Shown piece after piece: positions 1 to 16,002 of a stretch of DNA of 36,512 bases. Source of the stretch: Methanomicrobiales archaeon (GTDB lineage: Archaea; Halobacteriota; Methanomicrobia; Methanomicrobiales; Methanospirillaceae). Positions within the stretch are counted from its first letter, which is position 1. Every line of letters begins with the position of its first letter. The position numbers and the translations under genes are program-made. Location of the stretch: the NCBI GenBank assembly GCA_037137755.1, contig JBAXJR010000025.1, positions 1-36,512 of the forward strand, in the 5' to 3' direction. The notes below the pieces were generated by a model. The model saw only the letters and a list, made by a program, of their open reading frames with translations, was not told the DNA's origin and made no database searches.

Positions 1-52
1 ATCATGTCGGCCTTTCACGCCGACGACTGGGGTTCGAATCCCCATAGCAGCA
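1..52 (+). tRNA. tRNA-Glu(TTC), 5' part outside the window
   Basis: Anticodon arm GTCGGC-CTTTCAC-GCCGAC (TTC at 14-16), T arm TGGGG-TTCGAAT-CCCCA, acceptor strand TAGCAGC plus discriminator A, no encoded CCA, followed by a T-run. Confidence 0.93.
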
Positions 53-157
53 TACTGATTTTTTTATATTGCCGTGATCATACAGAATGTTCATCATTCA
101 ACCGGAATATGTGAATAACAGATAGTAAATGAACGTGGTATTTCCGGAGAAGATCCC

Positions 158-949: not shown

Positions 950-950
950 T

Positions 951-1586
951 ATGCCCTACGACCTGTATGTAATTACTGATGAAAAACTCCGAAAAGGCCT
1001 GACACACCAGCAGATTGCACAGGAAGCAGTTAACGGAGGTGCAGACGTTATCCAGCTCCGCGATAAGGGAATGTCAGGACGCGGATTATTCATTACCGCA
1101 TGTGAAATCAGGGATATTACCCGGATTGCCGGCGCTTTATTTATAGTAAATGATCGGATTGATATTGCCATCGCATCAGGTGCAGACGGAGTTCACCTGG
1201 GACAGGATGACCTGCCATTATTCGTGGCAAGACAACTCGCTCCCGGGGATTTTATAATTGGTATATCAGTTGGATCGGTTACCGAGGCGGTGAATGCTGA
1301 AGCAGGTGGGGCTGATTATGTCGCCGTCAGCCCGGTTTTTGGAACCGGTACAAAGCCGGATGCAGGACCGGGACATGGGATGGCCGTGGTCAGGGCAATC
1401 AGGAAAAACGTTTCAATCCCGGTAATAGGCATAGGTGGCATTACGAAAGAAAATGTCAGGGAGGTATTATTGTCAGGTGCTGACGGTATTGCAGTGGTAT
1501 CTGCCATTATAAGTTCGGAGGATATCACGAAAGCCTCGCAGGAATTAAAATCACTTATCAGGCACTCCAAACAAATCCGAATGTAA
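951..1586 (+). CDS. thiE: Thiamine-phosphate synthase
   Basis: LYVITD, IQLRDK, IVNDRIDIA, DGVHLGQDD, TGTK and IGGI motifs; ATG at 951 lies 1 nt after the thiM stop, so the ORF-track start at 774 is too long. Confidence 0.96.
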   Translation: MPYDLYVITDEKLRKGLTHQQIAQEAVNGGADVIQLRDKGMSGRGLFITACEIRDITRIAGALFIVNDRIDIAIASGADGVHLGQDDLPLFVARQLAPGDFIIGISVGSVTEAVNAEAGGADYVAVSPVFGTGTKPDAGPGHGMAVVRAIRKNVSIPVIGIGGITKENVREVLLSGADGIAVVSAIISSEDITKASQELKSLIRHSKQIRM

Positions 1587-1898
1587 TGCTGGTTTGATTG
1601 CATCTATAGTTACAGGACCGGTATTCTCCCGGATCATTTGATTCCAGCACTCCATGTAAAAGGAATAGGGTGTTAGGATCAGGCAAAGGTTCTATAAGGT
1701 GGCGCTTTATCCATTTCATTCACTTCGAAAACATTATTCTTTTCTCAAAATGAGTAACCTCCGGAAAAATCCATTTTTTTAAAAAAAAATAACTTTTTTA
1801 ACCTGGCCGGATGTGACCTGATTATCTTATCGTAAATCAGAAAAACAAACTCTCAATCCCGGTTAAATGGACACCGGTAATGTTGGGATATGAAAAAA

Positions 1899-2144
1899 CT
1901 AAATGGGAATGATTTTCCAGAACTGGTCAATAAAGAAACCTGTCGTATCGGCAAGTGCAACTATCAGGGGTCCCATGCCCTGTATCATCTGATCAACCAG
2001 CTGGAAAACAGCCCCTTTACGTTCAGTTATCATACTCTGGTCTGCCGAAATCATCATGGCGAGTGCAACGAGGACAAACATCGCAAGTAAGAGGATGATC
2101 ATCAGGATTGCTATATAGAATACCTCTCCGGACCTTACCCGCAT
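1899..2144 (-). CDS. Small hypothetical membrane protein
   Basis: 81 aa with a long hydrophobic N-terminal helix; AT-rich promoter-like DNA upstream. Confidence 0.5.
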   Translation of the reverse strand: MRVRSGEVFYIAILMIILLLAMFVLVALAMMISADQSMITERKGAVFQLVDQMIQGMGPLIVALADTTGFFIDQFWKIIPI

Positions 2145-2338
2145 CAGATTATTTTACCACACTATGAAAACTTAAATACTCTGATTCTGTTCCTGCCAGA
2201 TGTATGAAAATATGAAACAGGTTTCAATTTATCCGGTAATTTCATTCCCATTTATGCTATATTCATACCCGGAATTAAAAGTAATACCCAGGTCATTCTA
2301 TATAGTGCAATACATATCCGACCCTTTCCCGGACAGTA

Positions 2339-2539
2339 CTATGAAATATCAGTAGCTTTTCCCCGGGTTTCCATGATTAAAAAGACCAGAAGAATAGCTG
2401 AAACCCCTAGCACCGTTAAGGTAATAAAAAAACTTATCCAAAGCATAATTCCCTGCTGGTAAATAAATCCCGCCCAAAGCAACGCTACAAGTGATATCAG
2501 GGAATAGAAGACCCACCCCCTACTATCCATCACTTCCAT
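2339..2539 (-). CDS. Small hypothetical protein with two TM helices
   Basis: 66 aa, two clear hydrophobic segments and a charged tail. Confidence 0.55.
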   Translation of the reverse strand: MEVMDSRGWVFYSLISLVALLWAGFIYQQGIMLWISFFITLTVLGVSAILLVFLIMETRGKATDIS

Positions 2540-2708
2540 AAGTGACTGTGTTACTAACCAGTGTTACTTATAGGTTTCCCCTTGAAAAAAACGGCTGTCA
2601 TTTGTTAGCACTGCACCAAACAGAAGGTCTGGTGTGCCCGGGAGAAGAACTTTTACTCACTAAAACCATAAGATCTTAAACTATTATGGTATAATATCTG
2701 AAATCATT

Positions 2709-2909
2709 ATGATTGAGAAGGTTAAGGTCCCCCGGAAGGTCTATGATGAGCTCGCCCCCCTCAACAGGGAAGTTCATTATACGTTGGATTTCCAGAAAAT
2801 CATAAAAATGGCAGAAGGAAGGGGTTACCTGAAAGCTGCGGCATGGTTACAAAATCACGAAGAGGAATATAAACGTGGGTTCACGCATGGTTTTGAACCG
2901 GTCGATTAA
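2709..2909 (+). CDS. Small hypothetical protein, DUF5049-like
   Basis: KVKVP...KMAEGRGY..AAAWL..H.EEY.RG...GFEP recalls DUF5049 (recognition from memory only); T/A-rich flanks. Confidence 0.6.
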   Translation: MIEKVKVPRKVYDELAPLNREVHYTLDFQKIIKMAEGRGYLKAAAWLQNHEEEYKRGFTHGFEPVD

Positions 2910-3018
2910 AAAAACCATTGTAAGCTGGATGGTCCTTTCGACATATTTTTCTGCCAGATTACCCCGGTGTGATTCAAAAGAATAATGCTTTTTCATCTGA
3001 CCCCCTACAATAGTGATT

Positions 3019-3753
3019 ATGAAAATTTCGAACCCGTTAGTTTTTTTATGTATCCTGGTGCTTGCAGGATTACTGCTTATTATTCCGGTGTCTGCAGCAG
3101 GTCTGACCACTGATATGAGCAAGCCAACACTCACGGCGTCTGTTTCTCCATCGGCACCAAAAGTTGGAGATACGGTCGTTATCAGTGGAACGGCAACTGG
3201 TGGAAACCTAACACCCGGGGTCAGTTTGTGGATTTTCGCAGGTAATTATGTTAATATTTCTAATGTACCGGTCAATGCCAGCGGATTCTACACCACGAGT
3301 GTGAATACGGCTGGATTACCACCTGCCTATTACTATATTTTTGTCCAGCACCCTGGTTCGGATAACAAGTTCAATATTAATGTTAAGGGATATTCAGGAG
3401 AAGTTATGAACACAAACACCGGAACAGTAATCTTCAATTTCACGGGTACCGGGAGTGTAAATGACAATGCCGCGGCAATAGCCCTCTCAAATGCATTTAA
3501 TGCAATTGGTGTGGATGATATATTTTCAAAAACCGGGGTCGAACTCCTTCCCGGTGTTGCCAGCATAAATGCCACGATGACAAGACCGGCTACCACCGTA
3601 GTTGCTAACACAAATCCTACTAATCCTGTGACTACGGGGGTCGCAACAACCTCTGCAATACCTTCTGCTACCAAAGCTCCACTTTCAATAATTTCGTCCG
3701 TTCTTGGAATAGGGCTTGTAGGAATTGGGATGGCTTTCCTGCGGAGAGATTAA
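3019..3753 (+). CDS. Secreted cell-surface glycoprotein related to Methanomicrobiales S-layer domains, with C-terminal membrane anchor
   Basis: Signal peptide ending PVSA; GTATG...WIF.GNY...FVQHP...A.AL..A.N...VDD core; several N-x-S/T sequons; Thr-rich linker; TKAPLS + TM + RRD tail. Confidence 0.8.
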   Translation: MKISNPLVFLCILVLAGLLLIIPVSAAGLTTDMSKPTLTASVSPSAPKVGDTVVISGTATGGNLTPGVSLWIFAGNYVNISNVPVNASGFYTTSVNTAGLPPAYYYIFVQHPGSDNKFNINVKGYSGEVMNTNTGTVIFNFTGTGSVNDNAAAIALSNAFNAIGVDDIFSKTGVELLPGVASINATMTRPATTVVANTNPTNPVTTGVATTSAIPSATKAPLSIISSVLGIGLVGIGMAFLRRD

Positions 3754-4034
3754 CACCCAGTTGCATCTTTTTTTGTATCGTGTGCTGATACAGCAAATCG
3801 TTTCACTCCATCCATTAGGGATGAAAATCTCGTGGATGATAATTAAAACGGTTTGTGAACCTGGTCTTAATGGATATTTTGGCTGGTTCAGGTATACAAA
3901 CCCGACGAAAACGCCCAGAAATTATACAATTTCTGTTCATCAATACCCGGACTTTTAAAGAGTGTTGTAATGGTGGAACACTTGCCAGAGAACAGGTAAC
4001 CACGGGATTGTTTTTGAACAAAAACAGAGAGGGT

Positions 4035-4340
4035 TTACCATTGGAATGGGTTTGAGGGAGTATATGCCTTTCCGTTGATGAGAAAACCCGGTGCACTGCT
4101 GGAAAACGTAGGCCGGGAAAACGGTATTGCATTCCCGCGATATAACACCGGACTTGTGGTAATACTACCTGAAAAGGAGGGCAGGGAATACTGGAAGGAA
4201 CTTGATGGGAGAATAACAACGAAACCCGGATGGCATGTGGAGGCCGAAACCGGTAAAGCCATGAATACCAGTACAATGAGAATTGCAACAGGTATCGCAC
4301 CTGCTCTACAACTCAGTAATTTCAATGCATTTATTTTCAT
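4035..4340 (-). CDS. Putative small secreted Ser/Pro-rich protein
   Basis: Signal-peptide-like VAILIVLVFMALPVSA followed by a low-complexity mature part. Confidence 0.5.
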   Translation of the reverse strand: MKINALKLLSCRAGAIPVAILIVLVFMALPVSASTCHPGFVVILPSSSFQYSLPSFSGSITTSPVLYRGNAIPFSRPTFSSSAPGFLINGKAYTPSNPFQW

Positions 4341-4930
4341 TAACTTCCACCTTGATTATATTTCATACGTTTATGGTGAATAGTAAATAACCTTGAATCC
4401 TGCGAAAAATAGGTCTCCGGGCCTTCCCAGTGCAGGTAATTTTCACAGGTCAGTATTCCTGTAATTGTCCCTGAAATTTCATTTGTTATTTATAATGGCC
4501 CTGAATTTTGAAACAGTGGATTTATCCCGAAAAGGCTAAAAATTATAAAACAGACGGCAATAATTTTTTATTAGCGCCCCGGCCGGGTCTACCTGTGAAG
4601 AGTTGAAATCTCTTCCAATTTGTTTTTCTTTTGTCATAATGGCCTATCTCCTTTGAGGATTATCTAGATTTTATCCCCCCGCGGATTTATAATTAACGAT
4701 AGAAATAGCAGTATTTTGCTATTGTGTCCGTAAGAATTTCTAGCAAATAATGGAGTGTGATAGAATTTTGAATCATGAGGATCAATCTCCTAAAAGATGC
4801 GTTCTTTTCAAGATCGATACGGGAAGTAGAAGACCGATTATGTAATTAATTGCGGTCTTAATCAAGATTATTTTCCAGAAATCTCCCCATCAGCAAGCTT
4901 TATGTATACTAACACTTTGGAGTTTGCTGT

Positions 4931-5275
4931 ATGTCTAAGACCATACAGGAGCCCGTCGATATGACGGACTCATATGAAATCCTCCTGACCTGTAAAAGGT
5001 CAGGAGAAGGCAGGTACACATGCCAAAGGATCTTTAAGATCCCGGCTGATGTATCAGTTCACCCCTTCAATAAGGATGAAGTGAGAGTCTCTGCCCATGA
5101 ACCGCCCAAAGACATCGATTCCGACATGGATCTGGAGAATCTTGCCATTCTCGATGATGATCTTGAATCCAAGGACGCACCGATCGATTATCCAGAATCT
5201 GGCGAGGGAGATACCGATCAAGAGGATCGATGTTTAGAGAAACACTGTGGGACTATTAAATCCCATAGGAAGTAG
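4931..5275 (+). CDS. Hypothetical protein with acidic C-terminal half
   Basis: 114 aa ORF; TATA-like TTTATGTA about 30 nt upstream; no competing ORF. Confidence 0.65.
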   Translation: MSKTIQEPVDMTDSYEILLTCKRSGEGRYTCQRIFKIPADVSVHPFNKDEVRVSAHEPPKDIDSDMDLENLAILDDDLESKDAPIDYPESGEGDTDQEDRCLEKHCGTIKSHRK

Positions 5276-5470
5276 GAGTAATCCCCTTCCTACTTCACCT
5301 TCAAATACGTGTTTATTGCGGATGCAAAACAAGGACTTCCTTTTTAAAAATTTCCTTTTATAGAGGAAAGAGGGGTTGGAGATAATAGCAAATGATTATT
5401 GACACAATGAATCAGTGTCCTACTGCGGATTAAAGTAATCAATAGAAGGTTTAGATGGAACAAGATATAT

Positions 5471-5610
5471 GGATAAAATCGTTGTAAAAGCGAGGGGAAG
5501 TTACCGAAGGAAAAAAAGGGCCAATCTGGCCTCAAATAACGAACGGAGGCAAAAACAGTAGGGTGGGGAGGGGTAATATTACCCTATTAGCTGGGTTTTT
5601 AATAATTTGG
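5471..5610 (+). repeat. Diverged relic of the 3' end of the basic ORF (10794-11015) plus downstream palindrome
   Basis: Encodes DKIVVKARGSYRRKKRANLASNNE versus DKIAVNSRIRYQRRKEANPGDLDE; continues GAACGGAGGC...GGGAGGGGTAATATTACCC, which is shared with 34593-34637. Confidence 0.75.
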
Positions 5611-5910
5611 GGAGATTTTGGATTTTTTGTGTATTGGGCAGGATCAAGCCGAGCAATGCAAAAAAGTTCGCAATGCTTGCCCAGAAATTATAATTTATTT
5701 ACGAAGTGTCCACTTTTCCAGGAGATATCTACTGGAAACAAATCCGATAATTTATTGCGTATTCAGGTAACCAATCGTATAAATATTGCTTCATTGGAGT
5801 TGGTACCAAATGAGACGGAATTAAAAAAATCGGGGAAAAGAAAAAACAAACATGATTGGACCGAATCAAGAAGAAATAAGGATAAGCCATATCAGAACTG
5901 ATGAACACCC

Positions 5911-6489
5911 ATGGATTTCTTTAATTCGGCATACAAAGGCACACCCCCCTGGGATATTGGCCGGCCCCAGAAAGAAGTCATAGATCTGGTCAGGAGAGGA
6001 GAAATAACAGGCTCTGTCCTGGACATAGGATGCGGAACCGGGGAGCATGCCCTCTTCTTTGCTGCCGAGGGTCATGAAGTATGGGGGATCGACTCTGCCC
6101 CCCGGGCGATTGAAAAGGCTAAGGAGAAATCTGCCGAACGGGGGCTCCAGGTGCAATTTCGAGTCCTTAATGCACTGGATCTTCCTAAACTCGGCAGGAC
6201 ATTTGATACCGCAACCGATTCAGGACTCTTCCATACATTGTCCGATAAAGACCGTCCGGTCTTCGTGGAAAACCTCGCAGCAGTCCTTTCCACGGGCGGG
6301 AAATACTTCATGCTCTGTTTCAGCGATCTGGAGCCCGCCGGATATGGTCCGAGAAGAGTAACAAAGGAGGAGATCCGGGATAGTTTTGGGAATGGCTGGT
6401 CCGTCAATTACATCAGACCGGCAGTCTTCGAAAGCCGGACCCGGACCGAAGGGCCCCGTGCCTGGCTCTCGTCAATATCAAAAAAATGA
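5911..6489 (+). CDS. Class I SAM-dependent methyltransferase
   Basis: PPWDIGRPQ N-terminus, VLDIGCGTG motif I, GIDS and FDTATDSGLFH. Confidence 0.92.
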   Translation: MDFFNSAYKGTPPWDIGRPQKEVIDLVRRGEITGSVLDIGCGTGEHALFFAAEGHEVWGIDSAPRAIEKAKEKSAERGLQVQFRVLNALDLPKLGRTFDTATDSGLFHTLSDKDRPVFVENLAAVLSTGGKYFMLCFSDLEPAGYGPRRVTKEEIRDSFGNGWSVNYIRPAVFESRTRTEGPRAWLSSISKK

Positions 6490-6776
6490 ACAAAAATCAT
6501 CAGGACCGCTTCAAATACGGCTGCAAATAATAGGAGATTGCGTTATTCCTGCAGATAAACGAGATCACCCTGCAGGAAAATTGTAATTTTTTTTAACCTG
6601 AATTGTCCTTTTTAGTAGCAAGATCATCACTTTATATCGGGAAAATATACAACCTGTTGGTAACTGATCTTAGTCTGTCAGATACCATCCTAAACAAACA
6701 CAAGAGTTCAGTTGGGGGGGCCAGTCACCCCAAAGGCCCCCTTTATCAAAGAAAAGAAGCTTTTTTCGGATTATTT

Positions 6777-6857
6777 TCACCCCGCCGCACACACTTCAGC
6801 CACCTTCACCGCTGCATACCACAACGTAATCCCTTTTATCCGGCCATTGCCGACATC
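6777..6857 (-). pseudogene. Relic of the 3' end of an orc1/cdc6 paralog
   Basis: Minus strand reads GNGRIKGITLWYAAVKVAEVCAAG* versus GNGRTKGIALRYAAVKVAEACAVG* at the end of 9481-10611; 19/24 aa and 60/75 nt identical by hand alignment. Confidence 0.88.
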
Positions 6858-7020
6858 AAATTCAGTCCGATTTCTATCAAAGGAATAACTCAATAAAAAA
6901 AGATACATTTATCGATCAGGATACCCTAAAACCAACTTATATCAAATATTCAGGGAAATCCTCCAATCCTGGGAAACTGCTTCGAACACGATAAACAAGT
7001 TCATTAAAGTCCCGTTCAGC

Positions 7021-7515
7021 ATGAAGAAAGTCTGTGCATTCTGTGGCGTTATTATCAATCCCGGTTCCTCTCCGACAGCCCCGGTCAGCCATGGGGTATG
7101 TAAATCCTGTTACTCGGGAATTATGAGGCAGTTCGGGTTCAATGTTGAGAAATACCTTAATATGCTCGACGCACCGGTATTTCTCGTCGACTCTGATGTG
7201 AATGTCCTTGCTGCAAATTCTCTTGCAATAGCGGCAGTCGGCAAACCCGCTGCGCAGGTTCATGGTAACATCTGTGGGGATGTCATTGAATGTGTTAATA
7301 CGTTTCTTCCGGAAGGATGCGGAAAGACTCCGTTCTGCCCGGATTGTACGATACGGTCCTCGGTGAACGAGACCTTCAAAACAGGGAAACCGATTACGGG
7401 CCGTCCTGCCGAGGTAACTCAGAAGGTAGGGGATAGGGGGAAAAATACACACCTTCTCGTAACAACGCGTAAATCTGGTGATGTAGTCCTTTTACGGCTG
7501 GAATTTGATAAATAA
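7021..7515 (+). CDS. Zn-finger plus Cys-rich PAS-like protein
   Basis: N-terminal CxxC...SHGVCxxC; PAS-type start LNMLDAPVFLVDSDVNVLAAN; CGDVIEC...GCGKTPFCPDC cluster. Confidence 0.8.
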   Translation: MKKVCAFCGVIINPGSSPTAPVSHGVCKSCYSGIMRQFGFNVEKYLNMLDAPVFLVDSDVNVLAANSLAIAAVGKPAAQVHGNICGDVIECVNTFLPEGCGKTPFCPDCTIRSSVNETFKTGKPITGRPAEVTQKVGDRGKNTHLLVTTRKSGDVVLLRLEFDK

Positions 7516-7738
7516 TTATTTTGCACGTTGTTTATTACCCCGTAAGTCAACTGAAGAAAAGTAAAAGCACAATCCGTCCCAGGGTTCGATTACGGCAGAT
7601 GAAAAATCACCGATCATCCGATATTTAACCCGACATAACAAATAAAAAAAGTTATATCCCCAATAACGAATTCTGATAGTATTGTCGGGAAATCTGTCTG
7701 GATATCCCAAGAAGACGTGTTAATGGGAGATAATTTGT

Positions 7739-9409
7739 ATGGTTTTTGATGTCCGGACCCTGCTTCTCATCAATTTCATTGTAAATGTCCTGAGTGCCGG
7801 GACCATGGCGGTCATCTGGTACCAGTACCGCAACCGTTTTTCCGGGTTGTCATTCATTCTGGCGGATTTAATCATGAGTGCTATCGGTGTAGGTCTCCTG
7901 GTAATTCGTCAGAATGTACCAGAGGCTATTGCCATTATTCTCGGGAACGGCCTGATGCTTGTTGGGTTGTTTCTTCTTTTTGTCGGTCTTGAGGAGTTTG
8001 TCAATCAGAAAGGTCCCCAAATCCAGAATTATTTTCTGTTGCTGTTCTATTTCGTATCAGTAACGTACTTTACCGTCATCCAGAATAACCTCTGGTACCG
8101 CGAGCTGATTCTCGCGGGGATGATCGTCCTTCTTGACCTTCAGATCTGCTGGCTTCTCTTCCAGAGGACTACCCCTGTCCTCCGTCCGGCAACCCGTATC
8201 CTCGGGCTGGTCATGGGATGCCATCTTGTCTTCAGTTTCATCATATTAGCGCTGGAAATCATATTTCCGTTTGATACCAACAATTTTTTCAGCGTGGGAT
8301 TTGTCGGAGAGATCATCGTCACCACGTACCTGCTGCTGAATATCTGGATTATTATTGCCCTGGTGATGATGGTCACCCGCCGCCTGCTTGGCGAAGTTAT
8401 GGCCCAGGAAGAGAAATTTACCAAGGCGTTCCATTCAGCACCCTATGCCCTGATTCTTACGAAGATGTCTGATGGGATCATCTTTGAAGCGAACGAGGGC
8501 TTCACGAAAATTACCGGGTATACCCTCGGAGAAGTTATCGGGAAATCAACACGTGATCTTTCCTTCTGGGCACGCGATGAGGACCGGAACGCAATAATCA
8601 ACAGGGTATCGGGGGAAACGGCGGAGGGAGTTGAAATTCAGTTTCGTCAGAAGTCAGGAGAGCTTAAGACCGGGCTCCTTTCTGCCGAGACGATTATGAT
8701 TCATGAGGAAGCTTGCATCCTCGCAAGTATCAGTGATATCACCGAACGCAAAGCTTCAGAAGCTGCAATCCGTCAGGCAAACAAGAAATTAAACCTCCTC
8801 TCAAGCATTACCCGTCACGATATCAACAACCAGCTTACCGTGCTGATGGGTTTCCTTTCAATCCTTGAGACAAAGCAGACTGATCCCGGCAACAAAGATT
8901 ACTTCGAAAAGGCTGAAACAGCTGCTGAACAGATTTCGACGATGATCAGTTTTACCAAACAGTATGAAGAAATAGGTATCAACGCCCCTGCCTGGCATAA
9001 CTGTCATGTACTCATAGATAATGCAGCTAAAGAAGTCCCGCTTGGAAATGTAAGGGTTGAAAATAATATTCCTGCCGGAACAGAAATATTCGCCGATCCG
9101 CTTATCGTAAAGGTCTGTTACAACCTGATAGACAATGCATTGAGACATGGGGGAGAAATCACAACGATCAGGTTCTCCGTTGAGGCATGCCACAGCGGTC
9201 ATATACTCATCTGTTCAGATGATGGTGCAGGTGTCAGCCTGAAGGAGAAGGAGAAGATTTTCGAACGGGGATTTGGGAAGAATACCGGTATGGGGTTGTT
9301 CCTTGCCCGCGAGATCCTCTCCATCACCGGCATCACCATCCGTGAAACAGGTGAGCCAGGCAAAGGGGCACGGTTTGAGATAACGGTTCCGAAAGAGATG
9401 TACCGGTAA
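7739..9409 (+). CDS. Membrane-bound PAS sensor histidine kinase
   Basis: About 7 N-terminal TM helices, PAS/PAC, H-box ITRHDINNQL, N-box NLIDNALRHG, DDGAG and GFGKNTGMGL. Confidence 0.93.
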   Translation: MVFDVRTLLLINFIVNVLSAGTMAVIWYQYRNRFSGLSFILADLIMSAIGVGLLVIRQNVPEAIAIILGNGLMLVGLFLLFVGLEEFVNQKGPQIQNYFLLLFYFVSVTYFTVIQNNLWYRELILAGMIVLLDLQICWLLFQRTTPVLRPATRILGLVMGCHLVFSFIILALEIIFPFDTNNFFSVGFVGEIIVTTYLLLNIWIIIALVMMVTRRLLGEVMAQEEKFTKAFHSAPYALILTKMSDGIIFEANEGFTKITGYTLGEVIGKSTRDLSFWARDEDRNAIINRVSGETAEGVEIQFRQKSGELKTGLLSAETIMIHEEACILASISDITERKASEAAIRQANKKLNLLSSITRHDINNQLTVLMGFLSILETKQTDPGNKDYFEKAETAAEQISTMISFTKQYEEIGINAPAWHNCHVLIDNAAKEVPLGNVRVENNIPAGTEIFADPLIVKVCYNLIDNALRHGGEITTIRFSVEACHSGHILICSDDGAGVSLKEKEKIFERGFGKNTGMGLFLAREILSITGITIRETGEPGKGARFEITVPKEMYR

Positions 9410-9480
9410 TTTCCCCAGGCCACCGTGATTTTGTTTTCGTATTTAATTAAGAATAATAAGGAAAAGGTAATATCCCCAGG

Positions 9481-10611
9481 TTACCCAACCGCACACGCCT
9501 CCGCCACCTTTACCGCTGCGTACCGCAATGCAATCCCTTTCGTCCTGCCGTTGCCGGCCATCTGGCAGAACTCGATAAGCCGCATATCATCGAATTTCCG
9601 GAGCTTCTCAAACAGCCCGGAGATACTGATCTTCATCGAGAGGTTCACGTAATTAAAAACCACCATCATCGTGTCGATTTTCCCTATCTCAAGGGAAAGG
9701 GCTGCGATATGGCCGAGCAACTCACGCTCTTCAGTGCTCAGGGCCCTGATGGCGGCCATCATATGCACGTACCGGGAGACCTTAAACGATGCTTTAATAT
9801 CTTCCTCGGTGACCGAACTCCGTCCATCCCGTTCGGCAGCCATCACGCTTCTCTTTACAAGGTCAAGCCCTACCCGCATATCTCCGCTCCGCATGGTGTG
9901 GTCGATCAGAAACGTGAACATCTCGTCAGTGAGGACACCCGGGAAGAGCCCGGCCTTGATCCGGTCGTTGAGGATCTCCCTGATCTCCATCTCTGTATAA
10001 GGTGGAAAATACACTTGATCTGGCTGGAGGACTGAGAGAACCGCGGCGTCAAGGGCCCGCTCCAGGTCCACATCCATCGTTGACATCGGCAGAAGGACCC
10101 CGACCCTCGCCTTCGGATGTGCCACGTAAAGTCGGAGCAGAATAAAGAGAATATCGTTGAGGTGATTTCCCGGCAGGAGATAGTTGGCATCGTCAAAACA
10201 GACGAGAAGGACGGCCTCTTTCTCGTTCAGAGTCTTACCGATATCCTCGACAACCCGCTGTACTGATGCACCTTTCGCCGGCGGCTGGTGTTTGTGGAGT
10301 GCACAGTAAATTTTAGAAAAAACTGCATACTTCGACCGGTCTGTCTGGCAATTGACATACACCGGGATGAGCCGCTGGGTAGTCTCGGTAATCTCGGAAA
10401 AGATCCTCATGACCGCTGTTGTCTTCCCTGTCCCCGGGAGGCCCCGGAGTACCTGGTTCAAGGGGCGGTTGCCAATAAGTCCCGGCTGGATAGCGTAGGC
10501 GATATCTTTGATCTGTGCCTCACGGAAATTGAATATCTCGGGGACGAAATCGATTTCGAAGGCGTCCCGGTTACGGAAAAGGGTCTCTTCCAGGTTGAGG
10601 TAGTGTTTCAT
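9481..10611 (-). CDS. cdc6: Orc1/Cdc6-type replication initiator paralog
   Basis: Walker A GLPGTGKTT, YVNC, Walker B variant CFDDANYL, FPPYT, sensor II GDMR and C-terminal winged helix. Confidence 0.92.
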   Translation of the reverse strand: MKHYLNLEETLFRNRDAFEIDFVPEIFNFREAQIKDIAYAIQPGLIGNRPLNQVLRGLPGTGKTTAVMRIFSEITETTQRLIPVYVNCQTDRSKYAVFSKIYCALHKHQPPAKGASVQRVVEDIGKTLNEKEAVLLVCFDDANYLLPGNHLNDILFILLRLYVAHPKARVGVLLPMSTMDVDLERALDAAVLSVLQPDQVYFPPYTEMEIREILNDRIKAGLFPGVLTDEMFTFLIDHTMRSGDMRVGLDLVKRSVMAAERDGRSSVTEEDIKASFKVSRYVHMMAAIRALSTEERELLGHIAALSLEIGKIDTMMVVFNYVNLSMKISISGLFEKLRKFDDMRLIEFCQMAGNGRTKGIALRYAAVKVAEACAVG

Positions 10612-10793
10612 AGGACACGATCATATCACCGGTCGCTATTTAGAGTTGGAGCGGACGTGGTTTGAAAGTGAATTCGATATAAGAAGCTTGTTACTCAGTG
10701 CTTTTGCCGTGCAATCGTTGTAAAATATTTATTTTTCCCCCATGGCCCCCGATACCGTCACGCTCTTTAATTTCATCGGTAAATACGAACGTA

Positions 10794-11015
10794 ATGATGG
10801 AGAGTATCACGGTCCCGCTCTGGGCGGCCCTCCAGGTGGCCAGGTGGAGAAAACGGGCAATTCCGAGGTGGAAACGGTGGCGTTTACAGAATCCCGAAAA
10901 GGATAAAGAGCAAAGGAAGGCCTATTATTGGCGGAATCGGGATAAAATCGCTGTAAATAGCAGGATTCGTTACCAGAGGAGAAAGGAGGCTAATCCGGGC
11001 GATTTAGACGAATAA
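10794..11015 (+). CDS. Small highly basic Arg/Lys/Trp-rich protein divergent from cdc6
   Basis: 73 aa from ATG 10794; 9 of 19 differences against the copy at 34441-34595 are synonymous in this frame, supporting coding constraint. Confidence 0.65.
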   Translation: MMESITVPLWAALQVARWRKRAIPRWKRWRLQNPEKDKEQRKAYYWRNRDKIAVNSRIRYQRRKEANPGDLDE

Positions 11016-11201
11016 TAAGAAGGTTTATGATGTAGGTGGGTAAGGTTGGTTCAATGAATATCAGGGTTTAAGATAAAAAGGGGCTAAAATGGGCGTTTTT
11101 ATACGAATACTGTCTAACTACCATATTTCCATTATCTTACCCCTTTTATCCACCGGAGGGGAGAAAATATACCTGAAAAATTTAAAATCAGCACCTAGGA
11201 A

Positions 11202-11229
11202 AATATAGGTGCCTATATATAGCCTATAG
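11202..11229 (-). promoter_or_regulatory. Candidate Pho-box operator (CTATAG-N16-TATATT, reverse orientation)
   Basis: AATATA-N16-CTATAG 46 nt upstream of the AbrB-PhoU gene; overlaps the inverted repeat GCACCTA-N8-TAGGTGC (11191-11212). Confidence 0.65.
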
Positions 11230-11275
11230 GGGAATAAAGTTTTAGAACAATCAGAATGGATGGGCTGAATCAGAT

Positions 11276-12286
11276 ATGGATATCAGAAAGGTGCAGGTAA
11301 CCGGGGGTTCTTCATACATTATCACGCTCCCAAAGGAATGGATCGAGAAATTACACGTTCAGAAGAATGATCCTCTTGGTCTGATTTCACAGCCGGACGG
11401 GACACTACTTGTCACTAAAAATATCAGCGATGCACAGGTGCAATCAGTCAAGGAATTTGACGTCACCTCGATCAATGATCCGGCTTATCTTTTCAGGCTC
11501 CTGATCGGGGCATATATTGCCGGGTTCACCACGATAAGGATTAAAGCAAAGCACCGGTTCTCACCGTTCGTCCGGCAGGTCGTCCGTGATTTCGCCCAGA
11601 TGACCATCGGTCCCGAAGTCATTGAAGAGACGGATTCCACGATGGTGTTAAAGGACCTCTTAAACCCGATGGAGATGCCGTTTGACAATACGCTCAAGCG
11701 GATGTTTGTGGTTGTAAAAAACATGCAGCTCGATGCCGTTGTGGCTATCGAGACAAACAACCCCACTCTTGCCGATGACGTCATTGCACGGGACAACGAT
11801 GTCGACAGGCTCCACTGGCTGATTGCCCGCCAGATGAACGTGATCCTGAAAAACGTCAATTTGTCGAGGAAGATGAACCTCTCCACATCACTCGTGGTGA
11901 ATACCTACCTGATCAGCAGGATTGTCGAACGGATCGGGGACCACGCGGTCAGGATGGCCGAAAATATGAAAAGGATCACCGATGAGGATATCGGAAAGAA
12001 TACAAAGAAGGCAATACGTACTGCAAATACCATTGCTCTTGCAATTTTCGATAAAAGTATCGTCTCGTTTTTCCAGTCCGATATTGTAGCTTCGCACCAG
12101 AATATCGAGTCAATCACGGAACTTGAGGCAGCGTGTGAACAAATCAACGCCCTTTCTATGGAGATGGGCACCCCGCTCGCAATATCACTTCACTACATAG
12201 CAGAGAGCATTCGGAGGTCCGGGGAGTACGCCGGTGACATATCGGAGACGGTTATCAATTACCTTGTGGAAGAACAGGGTATATAA
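11276..12286 (+). CDS. phoU: Archaeal phosphate uptake regulator (AbrB/SpoVT DNA-binding domain plus two PhoU domains)
   Basis: RKVQVTGGSSYIITLPKEW AbrB N-terminus; RDNDVDRL, VERIGDHA and ESIRRSGEYAGDI PhoU motifs. Confidence 0.93.
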   Translation: MDIRKVQVTGGSSYIITLPKEWIEKLHVQKNDPLGLISQPDGTLLVTKNISDAQVQSVKEFDVTSINDPAYLFRLLIGAYIAGFTTIRIKAKHRFSPFVRQVVRDFAQMTIGPEVIEETDSTMVLKDLLNPMEMPFDNTLKRMFVVVKNMQLDAVVAIETNNPTLADDVIARDNDVDRLHWLIARQMNVILKNVNLSRKMNLSTSLVVNTYLISRIVERIGDHAVRMAENMKRITDEDIGKNTKKAIRTANTIALAIFDKSIVSFFQSDIVASHQNIESITELEAACEQINALSMEMGTPLAISLHYIAESIRRSGEYAGDISETVINYLVEEQGI

Positions 12287-12447
12287 TCCCCATTTCCTTT
12301 TTTTGCGTAGTGCTAACATCGTGCGCGTGAGCCCTTCATAACCTCATAATCGCTTTTTTCGTGGATAACTGCGGAAAATCCTTCATTACCAAGTCATCTG
12401 ATTAAAAATAATTCGGGAAAAAACATATACCGGAAATTTGTATCAAT

Positions 12448-12481
12448 CTATAAAATATATAGTTAATATATAGTAATGTAG
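12448..12481. promoter_or_regulatory. Degenerate Pho-box-like site
   Basis: TATATAG repeated at 11-bp spacing (12456, 12467); reads CTACAT-N16-TATATT on the minus strand. Confidence 0.45.
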
Positions 12482-12544
12482 GTAAATACATAACTTATCC
12501 GGGTGATCTCATTATAGCAGTGCGGGATCACCGAGTGACAGACT

Positions 12545-14158
12545 ATGAAACATACGGACGAAGGGCCGGCCGGGATATTGGAATTTGGTACCCGGCAGGA
12601 GTTCTGGTTTTCTGAAAGCAAGAAATCTGTCCAGACCGGGGATTATACTGGTTCAGTTCAGAAAATTGACAAGGCAATTGCTGCATCTCCCAAAAAGCCC
12701 GAACCATGGCTGCTCAAAGGATATGTTACCTACCACCTCGGCCGTTTTGATGAGGCAGTCCAGTTGTTCGACCACGTCCTGAAACTTGATCCAGGGTTCA
12801 CGAAGGCGCTGTTGTTACGAGGGCTTGCATATATCGCGTTACACCGGTATGAAGAAGCAGTCGGGTCGTGCGACCGGGCACTTATCGGGAACCCTGAAAA
12901 TTCAGAGGGGTGGTATATCCGCGGCCTTGCTTTGAGCAGGCTGGGACTCTACGAAGCCTCAATCCAATGTTACAACCGTGCAATTCTTTTAGCGCCCGGA
13001 TATTCTGACGCATTATACGGGAAAAAACAGGCCGAGAAAAATTATCTGCGGCAGAGAGAGACGTTGGATGAAATATACCGCGACCTGGAACAAGACCCGC
13101 GGAATGTCAAGATCTTAAACCGGATGGGGAAAATACTTGCCACGGTAGGCAGGTTCGAGGAATCACTTGCGATCTATTCCAGGGCTAGGGAAATCGATCC
13201 TGGAAACAGGGATGCTATTCGTGGTTATGATAGTACAGAAAAAAATTCCCAACGATGGGCGGGTCTGCTTATAGAAAATAACAGGGAGGAAAAATATACA
13301 CCTGATACAACACTTGCCGCAGGTGAGGATCGTCCCGTTGAAGCCAGGTCAGATGTCCCACATAATGAAGTATCATGGAACACTGCAGGTATAACTCATA
13401 AGGAACCATGTGCGGCTGCCAGTCCTGCGGTCGAAAACGATGCTGGTGAAACACAATGCCAGATCCAGGCTAGTTTACCAGGTGAGGATATCCAACTATC
13501 TTCTGAATTCTCTATTGAATCTGCATTGGAACTTTCAGGGGACGGGGAATTCCTGGCCGCCATCGAAATGCTGAAACAAATTGTTATTTCCCGCCCGGAT
13601 GACCGGGAACCCGTTATCGCCCTTGCAACAGCGTACGAAACTGCCGGGATGTATTCCGATGCATTATCTGCCTGTGACCGGGCATTACAGATTGATCCGC
13701 AAAATGCTGTATTATGGGGGAAAAGAGGGAAAATGCTCATGAAGACTGGCAGGTTTGAATCCGCCGATGCTGCGTACAGCATGTCTCTTGGCATCAATTC
13801 CGAAGATGCAGGTATTCTCGCTGAACGCGGAGATCTGTTCAGAAAACTCGGGCAATATCCGGAGGCAGAGCAGTCCTATATCAGATCGCTTGAACTTAAG
13901 CCTGACGTTTCCCGGGTTTGGTATCACCGTGGGAAAACCCTTGCCATGCTGAAACGTTACCAGGAGGCAATCGAGGCCTGCGAAATTGCAATTTCCCTTG
14001 ATTATAATTACATTGAGGCCATGACGTACAAAGGATTTCTCCTCTCAAAAATCCAGAGATACCATGATGCGCTGGATGTGTTTGACACCGTGCTGCGTAT
14101 AGATCCCCAATGCAGGGATGCGCAGCGGATCCGCCAGTCCCTTAAAGGGAAGGTGTAA
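12545..14158 (+). CDS. Tetratricopeptide repeat protein
   Basis: Two TPR arrays (W..KG..L..LGR..EA...D.AL..DP) separated by an acidic low-complexity linker. Confidence 0.92.
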   Translation: MKHTDEGPAGILEFGTRQEFWFSESKKSVQTGDYTGSVQKIDKAIAASPKKPEPWLLKGYVTYHLGRFDEAVQLFDHVLKLDPGFTKALLLRGLAYIALHRYEEAVGSCDRALIGNPENSEGWYIRGLALSRLGLYEASIQCYNRAILLAPGYSDALYGKKQAEKNYLRQRETLDEIYRDLEQDPRNVKILNRMGKILATVGRFEESLAIYSRAREIDPGNRDAIRGYDSTEKNSQRWAGLLIENNREEKYTPDTTLAAGEDRPVEARSDVPHNEVSWNTAGITHKEPCAAASPAVENDAGETQCQIQASLPGEDIQLSSEFSIESALELSGDGEFLAAIEMLKQIVISRPDDREPVIALATAYETAGMYSDALSACDRALQIDPQNAVLWGKRGKMLMKTGRFESADAAYSMSLGINSEDAGILAERGDLFRKLGQYPEAEQSYIRSLELKPDVSRVWYHRGKTLAMLKRYQEAIEACEIAISLDYNYIEAMTYKGFLLSKIQRYHDALDVFDTVLRIDPQCRDAQRIRQSLKGKV

Positions 14159-14159
14159 A

Positions 14160-14507
14160 TTGATCAAATCGATTCTTTCAGAGCTCCTTGAAATCCAGGG
14201 AGTCAATATCGCTGCAGTTGTCAGCAGGGATGGTTTTGTTATCGAAAGCACGGCCCTTGGCAAGGTCGATATCGATGCACTTGGGGCAATGACCTCCACC
14301 GGGATACGATATTACGAAATCCTTGGCTACGAGCTCAAAAAAGGAGGGGTCAGGCAGGTGGTGCTCGACCTCAACAAAGGCACGATTATCCTGATCCCTA
14401 TCTCAAACGAAGTATTTATGGCGATCATCACCGATCCAAAGGCAAATACCGGTTTCATCACCCATGAATCGGGAAAAACAAGGGGACGCCTGATGGCTGC
14501 AATGTGA
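14160..14507 (+). CDS. Roadblock/LC7 (MglB-like) protein
   Basis: GVNIAAVVSRDGFVIES, DALGAM and ANTG; TTG start 1 nt after the TPR stop with AGGTG upstream. Confidence 0.88.
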   Translation: MIKSILSELLEIQGVNIAAVVSRDGFVIESTALGKVDIDALGAMTSTGIRYYEILGYELKKGGVRQVVLDLNKGTIILIPISNEVFMAIITDPKANTGFITHESGKTRGRLMAAM

Positions 14508-14510
14508 ACC

Positions 14511-14774
14511 ATGAGACCATTCATCACATTTTTTGGGTTAGTTCTGGTCGTCCCGGGATGGACCCTTCTATCGATAGATCCTTCCGATATCATCAATCCA
14601 CATTTTTCCACCCCTTCCGGATCATTGTTATGGGAATTAATGGGTACTCCACATGATATAGGGCAAATTCATCTCTATGGCCTTGCGGTCATCATGCTTG
14701 GCATAATCATCGCGTTGTACGGTCTGTTAACAACACCCGGTGAAGAAGACAACAGTTCATCGTTAGTAATGTAG
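14511..14774 (+). CDS. Small membrane protein with two TM helices
   Basis: Starts 3 nt after the roadblock stop; two hydrophobic helices. Confidence 0.7.
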   Translation: MRPFITFFGLVLVVPGWTLLSIDPSDIINPHFSTPSGSLLWELMGTPHDIGQIHLYGLAVIMLGIIIALYGLLTTPGEEDNSSSLVM

Positions 14775-15410
14775 AGGCGCAGAAGTAATTTTCATACATC
14801 CCGTTGTATCAAACGAGGGCCTTTGCATGTTTGTGAGGAATTCCCGGGGACCGTCAAACCGGTCCATATTCATAAAACACCCTCCGAGTTCAGGAGGTGA
14901 ATGTGCGTCGGAACCTACAGAGATGGGTTTTTTATGAATTATTGCATATTCACTGGCCATCTGGTTCTCCCCGGCTTTCATCCTCTTCCCGTTATACCCT
15001 TCGATGATATCGACACGTTCAATGATCGAATCGAGGACGGCCAGACCCATCGCCGTACAACGCATCGAGGAGAAGGGATGGGGAACTATCGAGAGGGCTC
15101 CCTGACCGCGGATCCTGTCAAGAGTCTCGGCCGCTGTAAGGGACGGGGAAATTTCCTCAGTAAGGAACAGGCCGATGATCTCTCCTTCGGAGGTCAGGAT
15201 CTCTTCAGCAAGGATCAGGGGGATATCCCGGTCAGTTTTCCTGATCTTCCTGAACACCTCCACAGAGCCGTCGATAGTATCGTGATCGCACACGATGGAT
15301 AGGATTCCCCTGTTTTCCCACAACCTGACAATATCCATGATATCGTTTGTGGAGTCACTGGAATGGTTGGAATGCACGTGCATGTCACATTTCAGAAGGC
15401 CGTTATCCAC
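14763..15410 (-). CDS. PHP-family metal-dependent phosphoesterase
   Basis: DMHVHS, CDHD, AEEI, PHPF, IEGYN and GSDAH motifs. Confidence 0.92.
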   Translation of the reverse strand: MDNGLLKCDMHVHSNHSSDSTNDIMDIVRLWENRGILSIVCDHDTIDGSVEVFRKIRKTDRDIPLILAEEILTSEGEIIGLFLTEEISPSLTAAETLDRIRGQGALSIVPHPFSSMRCTAMGLAVLDSIIERVDIIEGYNGKRMKAGENQMASEYAIIHKKPISVGSDAHSPPELGGCFMNMDRFDGPREFLTNMQRPSFDTTGCMKITSAPLHY

Positions 15411-15507
15411 TAAAAGTTCCTCCGGTACATTACAATATCATCATGGCTGCAACACGAGATACTGCTACAATTTACTCTGTCAATGGGGATCATTCGTAGT
15501 CGCAACC

Positions 15508-15993: not shown

Positions 15994-16002
15994 GTAAATT
16001 CC

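Follow-up and report, generated by a model that had tools for sequence, protein, structure and literature searches.

An accessory orc1/cdc6 gene paired with a small basic gene in an integrase-bearing tRNA-Arg(GCG) island of a Methanomicrobiales archaeon

Extra Cdc6/Orc1 copies in archaea derive from integrative elements, according to the excerpted text of Raymann et al. 2014 (PMC3914693), and excerpts of Krupovic et al. 2019 (PMC6563490) describe archaeal cryptic integrated elements in which an integrase is accompanied by Cdc6/Orc1 or primpol-helicase genes. At Sulfolobus oriC3, in the same excerpts of PMC3914693, WhiP adjoins an origin acquired from an integrative element. We analysed a window of 36,512 nucleotides (contig C25) from a Methanomicrobiales archaeon with a genome of 2.64 Mb (G000; other genomes, contigs and loci carry the labels G, C and L). 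Like the ‘shell’ Orc1/Cdc6 genes of PMC3914693, as excerpted, the accessory cdc6 of this window is a divergent extra copy beside two conserved core copies, is patchy in close relatives and lies in integrated foreign DNA; unlike them, its head-to-head partner is a small basic gene found elsewhere as part of primase-polymerase Rep elements, and a 291–306-aa form without the C-terminal domain nests inside its clade. With the cryptic elements, as excerpted from PMC6563490, the locus shares a tRNA-adjacent integrase, short border direct repeats, an Orc1 or primpol-fusion replication gene and many genes lacking an assigned function. It differs from them in lineage, its homologues having source names such as Methanoregulaceae, Methanolinea and Methanoregula, and in that its 45.6-kb island holds mainly cellular-type cargo (pst/PhoU, Ppx, histidine kinases and a corrinoid methyltransferase pair), unlike a compact element. 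As at oriC3 in the excerpted account (PMC3914693), an extrachromosomal initiator gene and a smaller neighbouring partner gene are chromosomally fixed; WhiP, however, is homologous to Cdt1, whereas neither a relative nor a matching fold could be detected for the basic ORF, and any origin at the present locus is putative. The system is of an ordinary type and includes a single uncharacterised family of small proteins.

A first-pass annotation of the window had described an intact divergent pair of cdc6 and a basic ORF, a relic of the cdc6 3′ end and two relics of the basic ORF. Sequence matches placed all five features at the coordinates and in the orientation described, far above chance, and other assemblies confirmed them. 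Metagenome contig L053 covers window positions 5794–16012 (10,220 nt) at 99.98% identity, and contigs from four other runs span 3722–5160, 4789–6521, 5593–6826, 6508–7767 and 9323–10836 with 0–1 differences, which rules out an assembly artefact. The window opens with the 3′ part of a tRNA-Glu(TTC) gene (1–52, plus strand; Rfam RF00005, 36 bits), cut on its 5′ side by the contig start. Its anticodon loop reads TTC by eye, its full orthologues in L035 and L037 are tRNA-Glu(ttc), and an ARAGORN scan of the window returned zero tRNAs. A conserved core follows (53–4408), with thiM (158–949), thiE and more genes (Pfam HK and TMP-TENI), which by blastn is syntenic with loci in G007, G004, G005, G012, G002 and G010. 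The tRNA-Glu gene is the start of this core and not an integration target: the core genes separate it from the island described next, and the target is a tRNA-Arg gene; a landing pad downstream of tRNA-Glu, as in the annotation, is not supported.

Beyond the core lies an island of 45.6 kb, comprising window positions 4588–36512 (31.9 kb) and C20:56–13739; the end of the window contig is joined to C20:1, with a 55-nt overlap, in the independent contig L085. The island ends at a tRNA-Arg(GCG) gene (C20:13740–13813, minus strand), beside which lies a tyrosine integrase gene (C20:12400–13770, minus strand; PF00589, 8.2e-24). At its left edge is an att-like remnant (4572–4587) repeating the tRNA-Arg 3′ end: 13 nt (4575–4587) are identical to the 3′ end of the genome’s own tRNA-Arg(GCG) (C20:13741–13753), and 16 nt to the tRNA-Arg 3′ end plus flank of G004. 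The 13-nt repeat is short (E 7.7 genome-wide) and convinces only because of its location: it lies 167 nt beyond the point where core synteny ends, and in G004 the real tRNA-Arg gene lies 174 nt beyond it. In G007 and G004, two of the six loci examined in relatives, the site is empty: the core leads to tRNA-Arg(gcg) within 0.2–2.2 kb, followed by 13.7–15.4 kb homologous to C20:13520 onward. The remaining four loci carry unrelated DNA beyond the core. The locus thus has what marks a tRNA-targeting island, namely an integrase beside the tRNA gene, a distal repeat of the tRNA 3′ end and an empty site in relatives. In the stretch 3500–12500, contigs from the DNA runs contained no joint across the island borders. 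Neither the window nor C20:1–13740 contains a Rep gene or Rep fragment; the replication gene that the island itself carries is the cdc6. As a hot spot of integration, the locus supports the landing-pad idea of the first-pass annotation for the site, but not for the Orc1-centred, recombinase-free unit that had been placed there.

The accessory cdc6 gene (9481–10611, minus strand) is intact and encodes 376 aa. The NCBIfam model for an ‘ORC1-type DNA replication protein’ (NF001624) covers residues 3–372 and scores 391.4 bits, above its cut-off of 354, and the Pfam matches of the protein (AAA_22, 5.8e-7; Cdc6_lid, 1.5e-12) amount to an AAA+ ATPase module with a Cdc6-type lid. The winged-helix family PF09079 gave no match to it at E ≤ 0.01 and is present, by precomputed annotation, in some homologues that are 46–57% identical. 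A Cdc6 phylogeny, as the first-pass annotation had proposed, placed the gene in a variable accessory clade apart from the core orc1 genes (support 98/90). A distant orc1 type occurs in all 13 genomes of the genus and a type of about 384 aa in 12 of the 13 (absent from G006, which is 75% complete); the accessory copy number varies between genomes.

The intact basic ORF (10794, ATG, to 11015, stop; plus strand) encodes 73 aa, in a family of 73–82 aa, and is nested in a longer GTG-started frame (10698–11015). Searches of Pfam, PHROG and NCBIfam gave zero family matches. The ORF joins its own family by nhmmer at E 3.4e-67; it is 60–85% identical to 20 of the 22 other aligned members and 36–38% identical to two C59-type copies. 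We counted 86 matches to the family in 12 of the 13 genus genomes (11 of 12 congeners), none in 28 genomes of other genera, and 21 member proteins among 5.8 billion. The median dN/dS was 0.335 (101 usable of 105 pairs among 15 intact copies), and the small basic protein is under purifying selection. Its AlphaFold2 model is all-helical (pLDDT 83), with zero PDB matches by Foldseek and a best VIA Z of 4.6. We infer that the protein binds nucleic acid and assists an initiator. By nhmmer, this genome has 17 copies of the ORF, 6 intact and 11 decayed. The 3′ end is present in every copy, and the 5′ part can no longer be recognised in ten of the 11 decayed ones; 5′ ends range over profile positions 39 to 172, and 3′ ends are constant. 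A MITE- or IS-type transposon was considered for this repeat and rejected, there being no flanking inverted repeats and no fixed 5′ end.

The usual home of the basic ORF is just downstream of a gene for a Rep protein of about 1000 aa with a primase-polymerase fold, which often follows a tyrosine integrase. Within the genus, a Rep gene of the same strand ends no more than 700 nt upstream at 16 places (8 genomes), against 4 cdc6 pairs, and at 0.9–1.5 kb in 3 more; the Rep and basic genes of C54 have a 4-nt overlap. Among 54 metagenome loci, 25 have Rep and 7 cdc6 as the neighbour, 17 have neither and 5 leave no upstream room. With 17 copies here and such ratios, the Orc1-centred unit of the first-pass annotation is not supported. 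For residues 1–340 of Rep, the AlphaFold2 model (pLDDT 84.8) best matched the AEP domain of the cyanophage S-2L PrimPol in Foldseek (6zp9_A; E 2.4e-5, probability 1.00, TMt 0.72) and also the RepB′ primase 3h20 (E 3.5e-4), and the Atlas lead was to RepB_primase clusters (0.96); the model thus shows the AEP catalytic fold at the predicted Rep N terminus. In this fold, and in adjoining an integrase in integrated elements, Rep resembles the mobile-element AEPs fused to helicase-type NTPases (RepB′ of RSF1010, phage PrimPols) in the excerpted text of Kazlauskas et al. 2018 (PMC5862659). Unlike those, it has no convincing match to the local Pfam-A, NCBIfam and PHROG models; its protein-database entry carries the precomputed family PF27228. 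The text of PMC5862659 does not mention Methanoregula, Methanolinea or Methanomicrobia. At 6 places an integrase 38–41% identical to that of C20 lies 1.5–4 kb upstream of Rep. Accessory cdc6 genes lie 4–11 kb from Rep in C10 of this genome and in G010:C21, and G012:C16 holds both cdc6 and Rep fragments. The basic ORF of the window has a divergent cdc6 upstream in place of a same-strand Rep.

Because the basic ORF belongs to a many-copy family of integrating elements, its relics are most likely decayed element copies rather than footprints of a self-moving cassette. We put a probability of about 0.62 on the reading that the accessory Orc1 gene and a gene of a mobile-element replication module are passengers in the 45.6-kb integrase-borne island at tRNA-Arg(GCG), and that the relics are the decayed remains of elements; copy numbers, gene contexts, island borders, purifying selection and the Rep fold are its demonstrated parts. 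The source elements, found genus-wide, would consist of an integrase, a few small ORFs, the Rep of about 1000 aa (N-terminal primase-polymerase fold, P-loop in the middle) and the basic ORF. They would integrate and decay, and their pseudogenised copies would retain the 3′ end and a terminator-like tail. Copies probably spread through element integration. In one lineage the basic gene would have become linked head-to-head with an accessory orc1, and the two-gene module co-inherited. The pair would then be a fragment of a replication module of mobile-element origin, carried as a passenger when the tyrosine integrase inserted the island at the tRNA-Arg(GCG) 3′ end. Both basic-ORF relics of the window would be decayed element copies, and the lone cdc6 relic would be left over from an earlier, related cdc6 copy in that place.

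The first-pass annotation had instead read the pair as a self-moving or self-duplicating, recombinase-free unit with its own origin that leaves its two outer (3′) termini behind. The divergent pair, a minority context of the basic ORF, occurs in 4 genomes: besides this window, it recurs with different flanks in G012:C260, G001:C5 and G002:C129, and also in metagenome loci. Since the pairing extends beyond this genome, the objection that no other cdc6 paralogue is so paired, which that annotation had raised against itself, does not apply. The intergenic region (10612–10793) aligns as conserved with the G012:C260 and G002:C129 cassettes. Self-movement would account for the different flanks (the window, G012:C260 and G001:C5), for homology between the window and G012 that runs from 9503, some 20 nt short of the cdc6 3′ end, to the basic-ORF stop at 11012 and no further, for the N-terminal subtype ‘ITVPLWAALQVA.W’, which is specific to cdc6-linked basic ORFs, for the two 3′-end relics lying 1.2 kb apart and for a window that itself has no integrase. 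We nevertheless consider it very improbable. The region, supposedly recombinase-free, lies inside an integrase-bounded island with its tyrosine integrase beside tRNA-Arg(GCG) and its att-like repeat at 4572–4587. Terminal inverted repeats are absent and the 5′ end is not fixed. A search using no lineage-specific ORB consensus revealed neither a set of ORB-like repeats nor any other sign of an origin between or beside the two genes. Moreover, the contigs of 13 of the 17 basic copies have no cdc6 match within about 7 kb, and an inner end, the cdc6 5′ end, survives beside the basic ORF in G002:C129 and four metagenome loci. Nor do the relics represent both outer ends alike: basic-ORF relics are genome-wide (11 decayed copies), whereas the cdc6 3′ relic is single in the 2.64-Mb genome.

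The left basic-ORF relic with its tail occupies 5469–5673 (relic 5469–5559, nhmmer E 2.9e-8, 71% over 59 nt; tail profile E 7.8e-29 at 5519–5673), and its conserved tail of about 100 nt contains the palindrome GGGGTAATATTACCC. The right one (34433–34729, copy 34433–34595; nhmmer E 7.4e-43) is sharply truncated at its 5′ side, with the frame kept and no start codon. The relics all match the plus strand, giving the same orientation as the intact pair. The cdc6 relic (6779–6852, minus strand) covers the last 24 codons; it matches 9483–9556 at 81% over 74 nt (E 1.4e-12; protein 19 of 24 residues, E 1.5e-5), and the homology ends exactly at the stop codon. Relics 5469 and 6779 face each other, and a convergent pair that left its inner ends is as easy a reading of them as a divergent cassette that left its outer ones.

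It is possible that these two relics record local history only, and so say nothing about mobility: an older cdc6/basic pair at 5.4–6.9 kb, with 3′ ends facing or in tandem, would have been mostly deleted or overwritten by cargo. The cargo in question is a SAM-dependent methyltransferase (5911–6489, plus strand; Pfam Methyltransf_25, 6.9e-22) next to the basic relic and, between the cdc6 relic and the intact cdc6, an ORF without assigned function (7021–7515, plus strand) and a PAS histidine kinase (7739–9409, plus strand; Pfam). Homologues of ORF 7021 occur in 2 of 12 congeners, at 74% in G003:C290 and as two weaker pieces (36–43%) in G005:C1. The cdc6 relic is nearest to the neighbouring cdc6, sharing 62 of 78 nt with its 3′ end against 20–25 of 78 (ungapped) for three other paralogues, and the facing relics resemble a convergent short-cdc6/basic relic pair in G003:C290. 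Between the methyltransferase and the cdc6 relic lies a non-coding piece with a G+C hairpin (6613–6749, plus strand; blastn 70% over 150 nt to C5:67532–67680 and 74% over 127 nt to L018 1101–1226). It recurs about 140 nt downstream of a basic ORF in G006:C177, so a single old block, later divided by the methyltransferase gene, could have comprised the basic relic, the piece and the cdc6 end; in C5 the piece is flanked by a TBP gene and a broken cdc6. By contrast, the 5469 relic has the palindrome tail and the intact 10794 copy does not, sharing a different tail with C26, so that the relic is not a duplicate of the present cassette. At 19% divergence, the cdc6 relic could be a relative acquired separately just as well as the product of an old duplication, and the third copy at 34433 and 14 copies elsewhere are left unexplained. 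We regard a purely local history as unlikely.

The right-hand copy raises another possibility, which we consider quite unlikely: that dispersed basic-ORF 3′ segments serve as portable homology, through which circles carrying a 5′-truncated copy recombine into a resident intact copy and leave intact copy, cargo and truncated copy in that order. The product here would be 10794–11015 and 34433–34595 around 23.4 kb of pst/PhoU/Ppx cargo. These borders form a direct repeat (34433–34595 and 10850–11012, 23.6 kb apart) of 87% over 163 nt (E 3.9e-51), an identity that is low for recent homologous exchange. The right copy is cut sharply at the junction with a Ppx/GppA gene (32825–34489, plus strand; Pfam), whose homology to a C1 paralogue stops at 34389 and whose last 19 or so codons are the basic-ORF relic read in another frame. 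The cargo consists of second copies, 68–83% identical to C1 loci, and includes a second PhoU-type gene block (11197–12286, plus strand; Pfam), the C1 copy of which has a divergent PhoU/pst arrangement as in G007. In G003:C275, too, the basic ORF lies upstream of PhoU-pst, and the 3′ end is retained in all 10 truncated copies. Against this, the 23.4-kb stretch is a mosaic in its own right (G006:C68 shares only 11200–16986, G003:C275 lacks 12.3–27 kb and Ppx is a separate block), and the four other runs contained no integrase-free circle and no empty-site allele.

The preferred reading, with relics as decayed elements, leaves awkward points besides the lack of Rep in the island, its mainly cellular-type cargo, the short att-like repeat and synteny support from two of six loci. 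Random decay does not explain the strict 3′-end bias (10 of 10 truncated copies in this genome) and an extra assumption is required; the 3′ end may stay constant because interior deletions of elements stop short of the flanking host gene. Three plus-strand basic copies and a minus-strand integrase also fit poorly with a simple one-orientation element array. A double role of the basic gene would explain both the retained 3′ end in every truncated copy and the cargo blocks bordered by copies: its protein would be a portable partner of two unrelated initiators, the AEP primase-helicase Rep and Orc1/Cdc6, and its 3′ segment with the tail would double as a site in cis, which strikes us as decidedly doubtful. 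Equally doubtful is the further step in which that site is origin-proximal or recombination-prone and the dispersed copies are functional landing or initiation sites rather than junk.

These data suggest that a self-mobile, recombinase-free Orc1 cassette should give way to the usual route of archaeal orc1 gain, through integrase-borne islands at tRNA genes. Along the way, the analysis maps an undescribed family of elements, confined to the genus, in which genes for an integrase, a primase-polymerase Rep and a small basic protein follow in this order. The island also shows second copies of phosphate-uptake genes travelling inside a genus. The small protein has no known relative, is under purifying selection and, in one lineage, appears to have exchanged Rep for Orc1 as its partner. 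Should it prove to assist initiators or to mark origins, it would offer a handle on the swapping of mobile-element replication modules in methanogens. At the cdc6 3′ end, two 20-nt direct repeats, GGTAATWTCCCCAGGYYACC, start at 9405 and 9466 (9405–9485, plus strand; chance expectation 0.01). They have no exact copy elsewhere in the genome, flank an AT-rich spacer of 41 nt and overlap two converging stop codons.

We found every feature listed in the first-pass annotation in the window, with the ORFs, relics and tRNA checked and the relics oriented as in the intact genes. The cdc6 ORF (9481-10611, minus strand) encodes 376 aa, and its product scored 391.4 bits against the NCBI curated ORC1-type model (cut-off 354) and contains Cdc6 lid and AAA domains. 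Head-to-head with it, the basic ORF, which encodes a small basic protein of 73 aa, runs on the plus strand from an ATG at 10794 to a stop ending at 11015. The cdc6 3' relic (6779-6852, same orientation as cdc6) matches the final 74 nt of cdc6 at 81% identity (E = 1.4e-12), with 19 of 24 residues agreeing at the protein level. Two relics of the basic-ORF 3' part share the orientation of the basic ORF: one at 34433-34595 matches at 87% across 163 nt (E = 3.9e-51), and a far more degraded one occupies 5469-5559 (nhmmer E = 2.9e-8). Window 1-52 holds a tRNA cut at its 5' end, with TTC in the anticodon loop and tRNA-Glu genes as orthologues. Assembly error does not account for this arrangement: metagenome contig L053 matches window 5794-16012 at 99.98% identity, and the island edge, both relics and the cdc6 gene are spanned by contigs from four other runs that differ at 0-1 positions. 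Over window 3500-12500, contigs of 4 DNA runs contained no empty site or alternative joint.

The first-pass annotation had proposed a recombinase-free unit that serves as a landing pad for cargo downstream of tRNA-Glu. Comparison with relatives placed the insertion elsewhere. In the congeners G007 and G004, a flank like that of contig C51 is followed by the conserved core (tRNA-Glu, thiM, thiE and more, equivalent to window 1-4408), tRNA-Arg(gcg) and DNA homologous to contig C20 from position 13520 onward. In the source genome, G000, this tRNA-Arg lies at C20:13740-13813 on the minus strand, and an integrase gene adjoins it. Window 4575-4587 is a copy of its final 13 nt, and window 4572-4587 is a 16-nt match to the G004 tRNA end plus flank, 167 nt from the core in the window versus 174 nt in G004. 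In the metagenomic locus L085, the end of the window contig, C25, joins C20:1 directly with a 55-nt overlap. The relatives' gene order, the tRNA-end repeat and this join therefore define an insertion of window 4588-36512 plus C20:56-13739, or ~45.6 kb. The region as a whole thus belongs to an integrase-borne island, with the integrase gene beside tRNA-Arg; it is the core that follows tRNA-Glu, and the insertion sits at tRNA-Arg. In G007, a basic-ORF relic occupies the corresponding spot, between the core and tRNA-Arg. Four other relatives have unrelated DNA after the core, so this site is a hot spot.

Searching with a DNA profile made from six intact copies, we found 17 copies of the basic ORF in the 2.64-Mb genome, 6 of them with an open frame. 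The 3' end was retained in all 17. Ten of the 11 decayed copies had no recognisable 5' part, with 8-141 nt of the 219-nt ORF gone, and the DNA 5' of these ten was no more similar to the consensus than shuffled sequence. A conserved tail of ~100 nt is present on eight copies and partially on five more. For the 82-aa protein forms, the frame closes with TAA within the tail palindrome GGGGTAATATTACCCC, so the tail has the look of a short extension of the C terminus together with a terminator-like hairpin. The tail profile matched only places joined to basic-ORF copies, so we rejected the possibility that the tail is an independent repeat or a separate MITE. Genes 3' of the copies were alike only between C54 and C59, so the basic-ORF unit stops short of downstream DNA. 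The family is present in 11 of the 12 other genus genomes (86 matches in total, including the source genome) and in none of the 28 searched genomes of other genera; the protein had 21 matches among 5.8 billion, all unnamed. Across fifteen intact copies, 101 of the 105 pairs were usable and the median dN/dS was 0.335, so, judged by its substitution pattern, the basic ORF is a real protein. Its AlphaFold2 model is all-helical (pLDDT 83). Searches of Pfam, PHROGs and NCBIfam assigned it to no family, Foldseek against the PDB returned no matches, and a wide VIA-align search gave a best Z of 4.6, with generic long helices only.

The usual neighbour of the basic ORF is Rep, a replication protein of ~1000 aa, and not cdc6. 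On C54 and C59, the basic ORF follows a Rep gene on the same strand, with a 4-nt overlap in C54. With coordinates combined, there are 16 places, spread over 8 genomes, where a Rep homologue ends at most 700 nt upstream of the basic ORF, and a further three where it ends 0.9-1.5 kb upstream. Among 54 metagenome loci with the basic ORF, which come partly from a single sample series and are not independent, 25 had Rep upstream, 7 had a divergent cdc6 (two being the window's own sequence and four retaining just cdc6 residues 1-67), 17 had neither and 5 had insufficient upstream DNA. A model of Rep residues 1-340 (pLDDT 84.8) has a fold like that of archaeo-eukaryotic primase-polymerases, with 6zp9_A (E = 2.4e-5, TMt 0.72) and then RepB' as the best structural matches, and a Walker-A-like GESGKGKS follows this fold mid-protein. 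By sequence, Rep had no PDB match at E <= 1, and at the same threshold Pfam gave only sub-threshold HTH and zinc-ribbon matches. Over 2,500 proteins make up the Rep family, and those with named sources come from Methanoregulaceae, Methanolinea, Methanoregula or Methanomicrobiales.

At six places, a tyrosine integrase of ~410 aa lies 1.5-4 kb upstream of Rep. On G004:C5, the integrase, Rep and basic ORF share one strand, in decayed form, and a more distant element on G003:C305 comprises an integrase, five small ORFs, Rep and a weak basic-like ORF. None of the 11 integrases in the source genome is within 25 kb of a basic-ORF copy on the same contig, and the G001 cassette has none within 70 kb. 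DNA upstream of the C50 basic copy was tried as a Rep C-terminal relic and was unsupported (best E = 0.8). Very divergent basic-ORF-like frames occur at G000:C58:6625-6774 (minus; tblastn E = 1.4) and at 9699-9881 (plus; E = 0.34) of locus L106; both sit downstream of more distant Rep genes, which suggests that the small gene is older and more widespread than the 86 clear matches show.

The link of the basic ORF to cdc6 is real but secondary. A distant orc1 type of ~434-460 aa is present in all 13 genus genomes and a ~384-aa type in 12 of 13, with G006 (75% complete) having the distant type alone; accessory cdc6 genes vary in copy number among these genomes. The accessory genes form one clade (support 98/90 in a 33-row tree), within which short forms of 291-306 aa are nested. 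On G000:C25, G012:C260, G001:C5 and G002:C129, cdc6 starts 180-310 nt from a divergently oriented basic ORF, and the cdc6-paired basic ORFs have a common N-terminal subtype and a conserved intergenic region. The other paralogues in the source genome have no paired basic ORF (C10 and C8), a basic-ORF relic 7.5 kb off (C34), or one 1.1 kb off with a TBP gene in between (C5). On G000:C10 and G010:C21, distances of 4-11 kb separate accessory cdc6 genes from Rep, and the short contig G012:C16 holds fragments of both. We read the cdc6/basic pair as a variant replication module from the same element pool as the Rep elements. The observations behind the earlier proposal are confirmed and its interpretation is supported in part: the pairing does recur, a recombinase-free, cdc6-centred unit is not supported, and a cdc6 cassette that moves itself and leaves both termini as relics is very improbable.

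Around the cdc6 3' end, where a kinase gene and cdc6 converge, two 20-nt direct repeats (window 9405-9424 and 9466-9485) flank a 41-nt AT-rich spacer, and each overlaps the stop codon of one of these genes; they are unique in the genome. A genome-wide search for the repeat as a candidate origin box, allowing up to 3 mismatches, gave no further copies save for two poor matches; the pair might represent the scar of a junction, or else a small cis element. On C5 (locus L007), a TATA-binding-protein paralogue (7824-8378; Pfam TBP, 3e-53) is flanked by a broken short cdc6 (6550-7425) and the basic-ORF relic (8523-8707), beside a VapBC pair, and may be a mobile-element-borne transcription factor. 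On C34 (locus L008), genes for a type I restriction R subunit, a 647-aa protein with a family-B DNA polymerase match and Mrr (180-7051) adjoin the basic-ORF relic, 8 kb from a short cdc6; this region is probably another mobile or defence island.

The stretch holding the relics is mosaic. The palindrome tail is on the relic at 5469 and absent from the intact basic ORF, and a 137-nt piece (6613-6749) is also found downstream of a basic ORF on G006:C177 and beside the broken cdc6 on C5. The nearest relative of the cdc6 relic is the neighbouring cdc6, and homology to G003:C290 begins directly past this relic, at 6896. Purely local duplication is a reading of the relics that we consider unlikely, and homology-driven capture of cargo between repeats appears slightly less probable again. 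The basic copy at 34433 is sharply cut, and the Ppx gene takes its last codons from it. The Ppx/GppA C-terminus (window 34389-34489) consists of junction DNA and the basic-ORF relic in another frame.

We favour, with a probability of about 0.62, a reading in which elements with integrase, Rep and basic ORF would integrate and later decay, and variants would carry Orc1 instead of Rep. The tRNA-Arg island would then hold a replication-module fragment of such elements plus cargo, and the window relics would be pseudogenes. Simple decay leaves the constant 3' end of the basic ORF unaccounted for; we infer that deletions of element interiors may halt before they reach the neighbouring host gene, or that a cis role may preserve the tail. 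Extra Orc1/Cdc6 genes from integrative elements (PMC3914693) and cryptic integrated elements with Orc1 or primpol-helicase genes (PMC6563490) are established. As far as our full-text literature search extended, we found no description of the integrase/Rep/basic-ORF element family or its small basic protein.

The island cargo includes second PhoU/pst and Ppx copies, which share 68-83% identity with the C1 loci; it also contains a corrinoid-protein/methyltransferase pair and many histidine kinases. Compared with G000:C1:12655-18807, the second PhoU/pst locus is split (window 11197-12286 and 27069-32667), and its PhoU lies ~15 kb from pst and is flipped with respect to the arrangement in C1 and G007; an HNH endonuclease gene (16003-16497, minus; Pfam 3.7e-10) lies in the intervening segment. 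G003:C275 (loci L044 and L049) has the same PhoU inversion without the 15-kb insert, and a Rep fragment and basic ORF are immediately upstream. In G006:C68 (locus L027), which is most closely related to the PhoU block of the island, a DDE transposase gene (9351-10292) stands where the window has cdc6 and the basic ORF. Histidine-kinase/receiver segments at window 8700-9410, 26240-26920 and 34760-35130 each have ~25-50 genome matches at 65-80% identity and belong to a very large paralogous sensor family, several members of which are directly downstream of basic-ORF copies.
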